A DNA stretch of 32,000 nucleotides, from contig JAIRQE010000006.1 in NCBI GenBank assembly GCA_031256725.1, forward strand, positions 150,001 through 182,000, in the 5' to 3' direction. Position 1 is the first letter of the stretch. Each line of letters opens with the position of its first letter. Made by a program: the position numbers and the translations under genes. The notes below the pieces were generated by a model. The model made no database searches, was not told the DNA's origin, and worked only from the letters and a program-made list of their open reading frames with translations. Shown here in pieces: positions 10,885 to 10,928 of this stretch. This DNA comes from Propionibacteriaceae bacterium (lineage in GTDB: Bacteria; Actinomycetota; Actinomycetes; Propionibacteriales; Propionibacteriaceae).

Positions 10885-10928
10885 CTCTCTCTCTCTCTCT
10901 CTCTCTCTCTCTCTCTCTCTCTCTCTCT
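10885..10928. repeat. (CT)22 dinucleotide microsatellite (polypyrimidine/polypurine mirror repeat)
   Basis: 44 uninterrupted nt of CT. The tract ends 45 nt upstream of the ATG at 10974, with an AAGGA RBS at ~10960. Confidence 0.98.

Follow-up and report, generated by a model that had tools for sequence, protein, structure and literature searches.

A (CT)22 tract inside a short leader reading frame of a restriction-modification-like operon: a possible frame-dependent switch

Following up an earlier note that had proposed a phase-variation switch at a CT microsatellite, we analysed the 32,000-nt stretch of Propionibacteriaceae DNA that carries it (contig JAIRQE010000006.1 of assembly GCA_031256725.1; hereafter the window, with positions counted from its first letter). 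The tract, (CT)22, lies in the leader of a restriction-modification (R-M)-like operon, inside a short upstream open reading frame (uORF) whose stop codon, at the assembled repeat number, overlaps the start codon of the first large gene, and this start codon occupies the loop of a hairpin that is an outlier in stability. That gain or loss of repeat units turns the operon on and off is plausible but unproven, and we present the finding as a whole with moderate confidence.

The (CT)22 tract and its setting

Positions 10885-10928 hold exactly (CT)22, 44 nt with no interruption, in the local sequence ...GGCTGAT(CT)22TAGCTTTCAAAACCAGAGAGTCTGCAACACTAAGGACGGTGTGGCATG.... Tandem Repeats Finder called 10884-10928 with period 2, 22.5 copies and 100% matches, the alternating run being 45 nt long when T10884 is counted. 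The tract sits in a 300-nt divergent spacer (10674-10973) bordered by an AGE/GlcNAc-2-epimerase gene on the minus strand and an HKD-SNF2 gene on the plus strand. The earlier note had described a perfect 44-nt CT run ending 45 nt before the ATG at 10974, which is exact in the sequence and agrees with the repeat call; the AAGGA ribosome-binding site that it had named is present at 10960-10964, and its placement of the tract in the 5′ leader of an R-M-like operon was borne out. Its further claim, that this is the longest simple repeat in the window, holds for dinucleotide runs: the runner-up in the 32 kb, and the sole other run of at least 4 units, is (GT)4, so that a run of 22 units is far beyond chance. 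The features of the leader and operon are listed below, n being the number of CT units.

10795-10800, plus strand: candidate -10 hexamer TAGAAT, matching TATAAT at 5/6 positions and fitting TANNNT
10798-10847, no strand assigned: perfect tandem duplication, two copies of a 25-bp unit (AATAATTGGTAATTGACACGGAGGT), each with TTGACA and GGAGG
10842-10846, plus strand: Shine-Dalgarno (SD) sequence GGAGG of the uORF, 5 nt before ATG 10852
10852-10977, plus strand: uORF of 41 codons (MFLTPYLSVAD(LS)n...FQNQRVCNTKDGVA), spanning the CT tract
10869-10890, plus strand: left arm, pairing with 10943-10963, of a long-range helix from which the tract is looped out
10885-10928, no strand assigned: (CT)22 microsatellite, read as (CU)22 and as Leu-Ser repeats in the uORF
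10929-10931, plus strand: TAG directly 3′ of the tract, the uORF stop at n≡0 mod 3
10943-10963, plus strand: right arm of the long-range helix (AGAGAGTC..GC..ACACT..AGG), including the AGG of the main SD
10960-10964, plus strand: AAGGA, the weak SD of the HKD-SNF2 gene, with ~72% pairing in the ensemble for all n tested
10963-10988, plus strand: 11-bp hairpin GACGGUGUGGC-AUGA-GCCGCAUCGUU, with the main start codon in the tetraloop
10974-14309, plus strand: HKD(PLD)-SNF2 helicase-nuclease gene, 1111 aa, with PLDc_2 and SNF2/Helicase_C domains
10988-10990, plus strand: TGA at the 3′ edge of the hairpin, the uORF stop at n≡2 mod 3, +14 from the A of the main start
14299-17532, plus strand: Eco57I/MmeI-type (type IIG-like) N6-adenine methylase gene, 1077 aa, with DPTCGSG and NPPY motifs

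The domains found in the two large proteins confirm the labels given before, PLD-SNF2 and a downstream methylase. In the HKD-SNF2 protein the HAK, GLGKT, DESH and QRAGR motifs are intact, and the N-terminus, MSRIVDN, agrees with the family consensus, which identifies ATG 10974 as the true start. The methylase gene begins within the helicase gene, overlapping it by 11 nt, and its open reading frame (ORF) contains no simple sequence repeat (SSR), the sole simple run being T7.

The operon lies on a genomic island. The GC content of the module is 45-49%, against ~53% in its flanks. A Propionibacteriaceae metagenome-assembled genome (MAG), GCA_009782785.1, agrees with the window in gene order (ABC transporter, epimerase, cation-efflux (CDF) and NiFe hydrogenase with maturation genes), and its proteins share 62-82% amino acid identity with those encoded in the flanks of the island; only 138 nt separate its epimerase and cation-efflux genes, where the window holds the ~7-kb low-GC module. 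Within a conserved gene order, this short spacer marks the ~7-kb module as an insertion into an actinobacterial chromosome, with the tract in the island-side leader. On the evidence of composition and gene order the module is horizontally acquired, and the host lineage appears to belong to the Actinomycetota, as a relative of a Propionibacteriaceae MAG. The island, at ~10.8-17.85 kb, comprises the two large genes and one orphan ORF of 62-66 aa. Its edges are not fixed by the 138-nt spacer of the relative, which gave no alignment to the window outside coding sequence; the search for terminal direct or inverted repeats of the island returned none that was convincing, and a first scan of genome contigs with the epimerase as query turned up no relatives.

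Look-ups by exact protein, made with the HKD-SNF2 and epimerase products, recovered only the contig of the window and two Logan contigs from one run (SRR14710887, a k=31 assembly), for whose accession we found no publication. Both Logan contigs terminate within the tract, one per side: in L001 an initial 25 nt of TC leads into the right flank and the helicase gene, and in L002 an initial 27 nt of AG leads into the left flank and the epimerase gene. Because a de Bruijn assembly breaks at repeats longer than k (31), the length of the tract in the reads is at least ~31 nt, and the tract is not the product of one assembler; the exact value n=22 comes from the assembly of the window alone. We regard it as close to certain that the tract is real. 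A 30-mer from the right flank had no match among JGI metagenome contigs, and (CT)20 gave at least 120 matches in IMG/VR, uninformative on bacterial function, many of which lie on 1.8-2.5-Mb contigs that presumably belong to giant viruses.

Slippage in the tract is very likely, and with it hypermutability, given that the tract is long and perfect and that the NucS repair expected of the host lineage would leave indels uncorrected; Actinobacteria lack MutSL, and their NucS mismatch repair does not correct indels (PMC7015689). As an SSR contingency locus, the 22 unbroken CT units are long enough for such hypermutability. The pair (CT)22/(AG)22 is also a perfect 44-bp homopurine/homopyrimidine mirror repeat, from which a potential to form H-DNA would follow.

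The upstream reading frame and the start-codon hairpin

The uORF stop codon TGA (10975-10977) overlaps the main ATG at 10974 as ATGA. GGAGG followed by ATG at a spacing of 4-9 nt occurs 8 times in 64 kb (both strands), so that the expected number of in-frame sites in the 130 nt preceding the tract is ~0.005. The start context of the uORF is unstructured (-3.2 kcal/mol). The uORF product has no Pfam match. The 25-bp duplication that supplies the SD was reproduced in L002, and its first copy carries a GGAGG at 10817-21, followed after 6 nt by a TTG at 10828 in the same frame as ATG 10852. The Logan gene caller had reported the uORF in this TTG-start version, as a partial gene cut off by the end of the contig (L002 3-83, equivalent to window 10828-10908, plus strand); as support for the uORF, the call is weak and edge-biased.

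Folding of the region around the main start revealed an 11-bp hairpin that by itself has an energy of -16.9 kcal/mol, and the -20..+20 fold at this start reaches -17.7 kcal/mol. For comparison we used a homologue set of 75 GTDB loci together with four loci for the three closest homologues (79 in total). The same fold in 76 homologous loci gave -4.9±2.8 kcal/mol (minimum -12.5), none being as stable, and in 21 other genes of the window it gave -5.9±2.1 kcal/mol (minimum -10.5). Shuffles of the 20 nt upstream of the ATG equalled the observed energy in 0.1% of trials (p about 0.001). The presence of G-U pairs in the stem suggests a hairpin in sense-strand RNA rather than a DNA palindrome. A role of the hairpin as an intrinsic terminator was ruled out, since no U-run lies 3′ of the stem (...CAUCGUUGACAAUAUC) and a terminator scan of the plus strand found none; Rfam returned no credible RNA family in the leader. 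The flanks of the tract also pair with one another in the long-range helix, a duplex of -22.6 kcal/mol compared with -14.1±2.8 kcal/mol for shuffled left flanks (p about 0.009).

Changing the repeat number in silico by one unit shifts the uORF stop among -45, +1 and +14 relative to the main AUG. At n≡1 mod 3, which includes the assembled 22, the stop lies in the hairpin loop and overlaps the AUG; at n≡0 it is the TAG that precedes the main ATG by 45 nt and the stem by 34 nt. An n-dependent RNA structural switch was ruled out, as the fold and the accessibility of the SD and AUG stayed constant for n=0 to 30, which leaves the uORF frame as the only discrete property that changes with n. Given that a ribosome covers roughly 30 nt, as argued by Danne et al. 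(PMC3894217), only the n≡1 and n≡2 frames would put a ribosome on the hairpin.

A sigma-70 scan found no -35/-10 pair straddling the tract and none on the plus strand upstream of the gene. The hexamer TAGAAT, if used, would set the transcription start site (TSS) near 10807, upstream of the uORF; alone it is not significant, about one such hexamer being expected per 300 nt. For the uORF to be transcribed with its SD, the TSS would lie upstream of 10842. In Haemophilus hifA/hifB, TA repeats between the -35 and -10 elements act as a promoter-spacer switch. The locus described here resembles hif in having a dinucleotide repeat in a divergent intergenic region, ahead of the gene that would be regulated, but no -35/-10 pair flanks the tract, and 44 bp is far longer than any promoter spacer, so that the change in -35/-10 spacing suggested in the earlier note by analogy with hif did not hold. 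The -10-like TAGCTT (10929-34) adjoins the tract on its 3′ side, and its -35 position would therefore consist of CT repeat at any n, which again leaves no spacing switch.

A possible frame-dependent switch and its alternatives

The combination of an SD-led uORF containing the tract, the ATGA overlap and an unusually stable start hairpin points to a translational, frame-dependent mechanism. We tentatively propose, at somewhat short of an even chance, that the tract serves as a uORF-frame translational switch of the operon. The uORF, with its strong, unstructured ribosome-binding site (GGAGG-N5-ATG 10852), would be translated through (CU)n, and the main initiation site would be closed, its weak SD paired with the left flank of the tract and its AUG held in the loop of the 11-bp hairpin. 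With the main site closed, expression of HKD-SNF2 would depend on a uORF ribosome that melts these structures. Each slippage event, of +/-2 nt, would shift the uORF into another frame. At n≡1 mod 3 the stop UGA in the loop (AUGA) would permit termination-reinitiation coupling and the operon would be ON; at n≡0 mod 3 the UAG 45 nt before the AUG would leave the hairpin closed and the operon OFF; at n≡2 mod 3 the hairpin would be melted and the ribosome would overshoot, so that the state would be intermediate or ON. While OFF, the operon would be untranslated and the pure YC repeat (CU)22 would offer an ideal Rho loading site, with probable polarity by which the overlapping methylase gene would be silenced too; YC dinucleotides are what the primary sites of Rho bind, and Rho attenuation that depends on a uORF is established (PMC12360218). 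We infer translation of the uORF, variation of tract length, coupling and the involvement of Rho from the arrangement of the leader. More tentative still is the full three-state stochastic form of the switch, in which n mod 3 would set whether the leader ribosome terminates before, inside or just after the start-hiding hairpin, restriction and modification being switched together, possibly with Rho polarity.

The closest precedent is the leader-peptide repeat switch of Streptococcus gallolyticus pil1, in which 22 GCAGA repeats in a leader peptide put its stop 39 bp before, within or beyond a stem-loop and thereby set operon expression (Danne et al. 2014, PMC3894217). In both cases a short SD-led leader ORF (here of 41 codons from ATG 10852) contains a long repeat (22 units in each) of a unit length not divisible by 3, and gain or loss of a unit moves the leader stop relative to a stem-loop (39 bp upstream there and 34-45 nt here; within; just beyond). 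The stable stem-loop is thus reached in some frames only, the stops here lying at -45, inside the loop and where the stem ends on its 3′ side. In pil1 it is ribosome occupancy of the stem-loop that sets expression of the downstream operon, and the same logic is predicted here. The unit, however, is CT here and the pentanucleotide GCAGA there, and the pil1 stem-loop is an intrinsic terminator that acts by attenuation, whereas the plus-strand scan found no terminator and no U-run in our leader, where the stem encloses the start codon with its ATGA overlap; the predicted control is therefore translational coupling, possibly with Rho polarity. The two also differ in setting, a Firmicute pilus against an R-M-like defence operon of an uncultured member of the Actinomycetota, and in standing, as pil1 was proven experimentally and the present switch is a matter of inference.

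The CT repeats of the Helicobacter pylori outer-membrane protein genes oipA, sabA and babA are phase variable (PMC10564699, PMC2715451, PMC5394467) and share with our proposal the CT unit, slipped-strand mispairing and a frame-dependent on/off outcome; their tracts are shorter and lie in the 5′ part of the sequence that encodes the regulated protein itself, whereas here the tract lies in a separate uORF and the regulated frame is never disrupted. Among phase-variable R-M systems and phasevarions, SSRs in type III mod, type I hsdS/hsdM and type IIG genes are cited in PMC3711429. As in these systems, a restriction-type system that contains a DNA methylase is tied here to a hypermutable repeat, but their repeats lie inside the mod or hsd ORF, whereas both large ORFs of our operon are repeat-free and the repeat is in the leader, so that nuclease and methylase would switch together. 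In its strict sense the phasevarion analogy drawn before fails, as the methylase ORF lacks an SSR. What stands of the phase-switch reading of the earlier note is a real, long and perfect tract in an R-M-like leader; the promoter-spacing and strict phasevarion models fall away.

Several observations weigh against a uORF-frame switch. The features that favour it were found post hoc. Any ORF across a CT tract is stop-free there by construction, in every frame, and, given the other features, the chance that the assembled n would fall in the ATGA coupling frame is one in three. Initiation is sometimes possible even from an AUG held in a hairpin loop when part of the SD is free. There is no convincing promoter upstream of the uORF, TAGAAT being only a candidate and the sigma-70 scan empty, and use of TAGCTT, 3′ of the tract, would leave the uORF out of the mRNA. 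Comparative support is absent as well: none of the 79 homologous loci has a comparable upstream repeat, the longest being no longer than A8 or (GC)6, and a conserved uORF is missing from all 79. The locus was found in one sample only. In the closest homologues, at 68% identity, the SDs are strong (GAGGAG, GGGAGG, AGGAGGG) and there is neither a hairpin (-3 to -8 kcal/mol) nor a repeat, suggesting that the leader described here is a lineage-specific elaboration.

The same uniqueness among the 79 loci favours a neutral microsatellite, one that arose by runaway slippage without indel repair or was made at the island junction and has no selected regulatory role. The uORF and ATGA overlap would then be coincidence, and the hairpin would merely keep translation of the nuclease constitutively low, which would suit an R-M-like module. 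The freedom of CT tracts from stops in every frame fits this explanation, as does the nearby island boundary with its other perfect tandem duplications (25 bp x2 and 17 bp x2), suggesting a slippage- or duplication-prone context. We nevertheless consider neutrality rather unlikely, although a serious contender, because it leaves to chance the agreement of three independent low-chance features (the SD-led in-frame start, ~0.005; the hairpin, ~0.001; and the SD-sequestering helix, ~0.009) and the fall of the assembled n into the coupling frame, and because a long unbroken tract argues for ongoing slippage or recent origin, not decay. 

Less likely again is an element of DNA or transcription that is independent of frame and whose output would be graded with n, be it H-DNA, the spacing or helical phase between the 25-bp repeats and a TAGCTT core promoter, or (CU)n as a Rho loading or S1 standby site. 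The perfect 44-bp mirror repeat, TAGCTT (which fits TANNNT) abutting the tract, the 25-bp direct repeats 37 nt upstream, which could be a binding site, and the affinity of Rho primary sites for YC dinucleotides (PMC12360218) are all consistent with such an element. However, no -35/-10 pair straddles the tract, the -35 position of TAGCTT lies within the repeat whatever the value of n, the RNA structure predicted for the leader is the same for n=0 to 30, and the SD-led uORF and ATGA overlap are left unexplained. Very improbable, finally, is an assembly artefact, whether a low-complexity misjoin of unrelated contigs or a collapse or expansion of the tract length in assembly. The Logan assembly (k=31) does break exactly at the tract, and several of the IMG/VR (CT)20 matches lie at or near contig ends, such tracts commonly breaking assemblies. 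Against this, the independent Logan assembly enters the tract from both unique flanks, its two contigs running 25-27 nt into it, which also answers the worry about an artefact raised before; L001, at 10,088 bp, should by coordinate arithmetic reach the CDF and hydrogenase genes (its first 6.4 kb were read); synteny in the relative sets the epimerase beside the CDF gene, so that a join across the tract is expected; and 44 nt is presumably shorter than the large k-mers of common metagenome assemblers.

If the tract does act as a uORF-frame switch, leader-peptide repeat switching would be extended from transcription attenuation to translational coupling, from a pathogen pilus to a horizontally acquired defence system, and from Firmicutes and Proteobacteria to the MutSL-lacking Actinomycetota. 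To our knowledge, repeat-driven phase variation of defence systems is essentially undescribed in that phylum. Switching nuclease and methylase jointly through the leader, and not by a mod/res frameshift, would hedge phage resistance against openness to foreign DNA without producing truncated proteins, and both the output and the tract lengths in a population should follow n mod 3. Metagenomes could also be searched with this architecture as the template, combining an SD-led uORF that holds a repeat of non-3 unit, an overlap of stop and start, and a hairpin at the start codon. If the model is wrong, the locus is merely an unusually long bacterial microsatellite at an island edge.

Module class and surroundings of the island

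The HKD-SNF2 family is widespread, with at least 581 tblastn-confirmed matches in GTDB representative genomes. PADLOC matched the helicase to HKD+Snf2, DrmD and BrxH, and the methylase to type IIG, DrmMI and PglX. Type-2 BREX-related (BR) systems combine an HKD-Swi2/Snf2 helicase and an N6-MTase with a DUF499 ATPase and DUF3780 (PMC12839542). Like these, the island encodes an N-terminal HKD nuclease fused to a Swi2/Snf2 helicase beside a large N6-adenine methylase; unlike them, it has neither the DUF499 AAA+ ATPase nor a standalone DUF3780 gene. The DISARM core, DrmA helicase and DrmB (DUF1998), is absent from the island, where similarity to DISARM is limited to the DrmD-like and DrmMI-like matches. 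From its gene content we file the module only as a putative two-gene, ATP-dependent R-M-like module, with no closer class.

The closest protein homologues of the island (68% identity, Microbacteriaceae-like) come from loci of 61-64% GC. With the island at 45-49% GC, the host at ~53% and these nearest relatives at 61-64%, the composition of the donor fits neither the host nor those relatives. Between the methylase stop and the cation-efflux gene lies the orphan ORF of 62-66 aa (17592-17792, plus strand; a good SD, GGAGGA, ahead of ATG 17604), which had no Pfam match and could be a small accessory island gene or a gene fragment. A second perfect tandem duplication, of the 17-bp unit CCAGTAAGTTAATACAT (x2, 17812-17845), lies at the island's right edge, with 22 nt between it and the cation-efflux ATG at 17868 downstream; both island borders thus bear perfect tandem duplications (25-bp left, 17-bp right), of unrelated sequence. 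The 25-bp unit was rejected as a recurrent element, since the 20-mer TTGGTAATTGACACGGAGGT matched one set of five near-identical JGI contigs, about the chance expectation. In these contigs, which have no other similarity to the window, the 20-mer covers both the stop codon of an Xis-like ORF and the SD belonging to an integrase-like ORF (MASIRKQGNKYF...).

Elsewhere in the window, a ParD-like antitoxin gene (4281-4640, plus strand) overlaps by 1 nt a zeta-toxin/AAA_33 kinase gene (4640-5209), and 4281-5209 is probably a type II toxin-antitoxin pair. Upstream of it, positions 34-4161 (plus strand) encode a 1375-aa protein with about ten Big_1/invasin-D3 Ig-like repeats and filamin and Big_6 domains, presumably a large surface adhesin.

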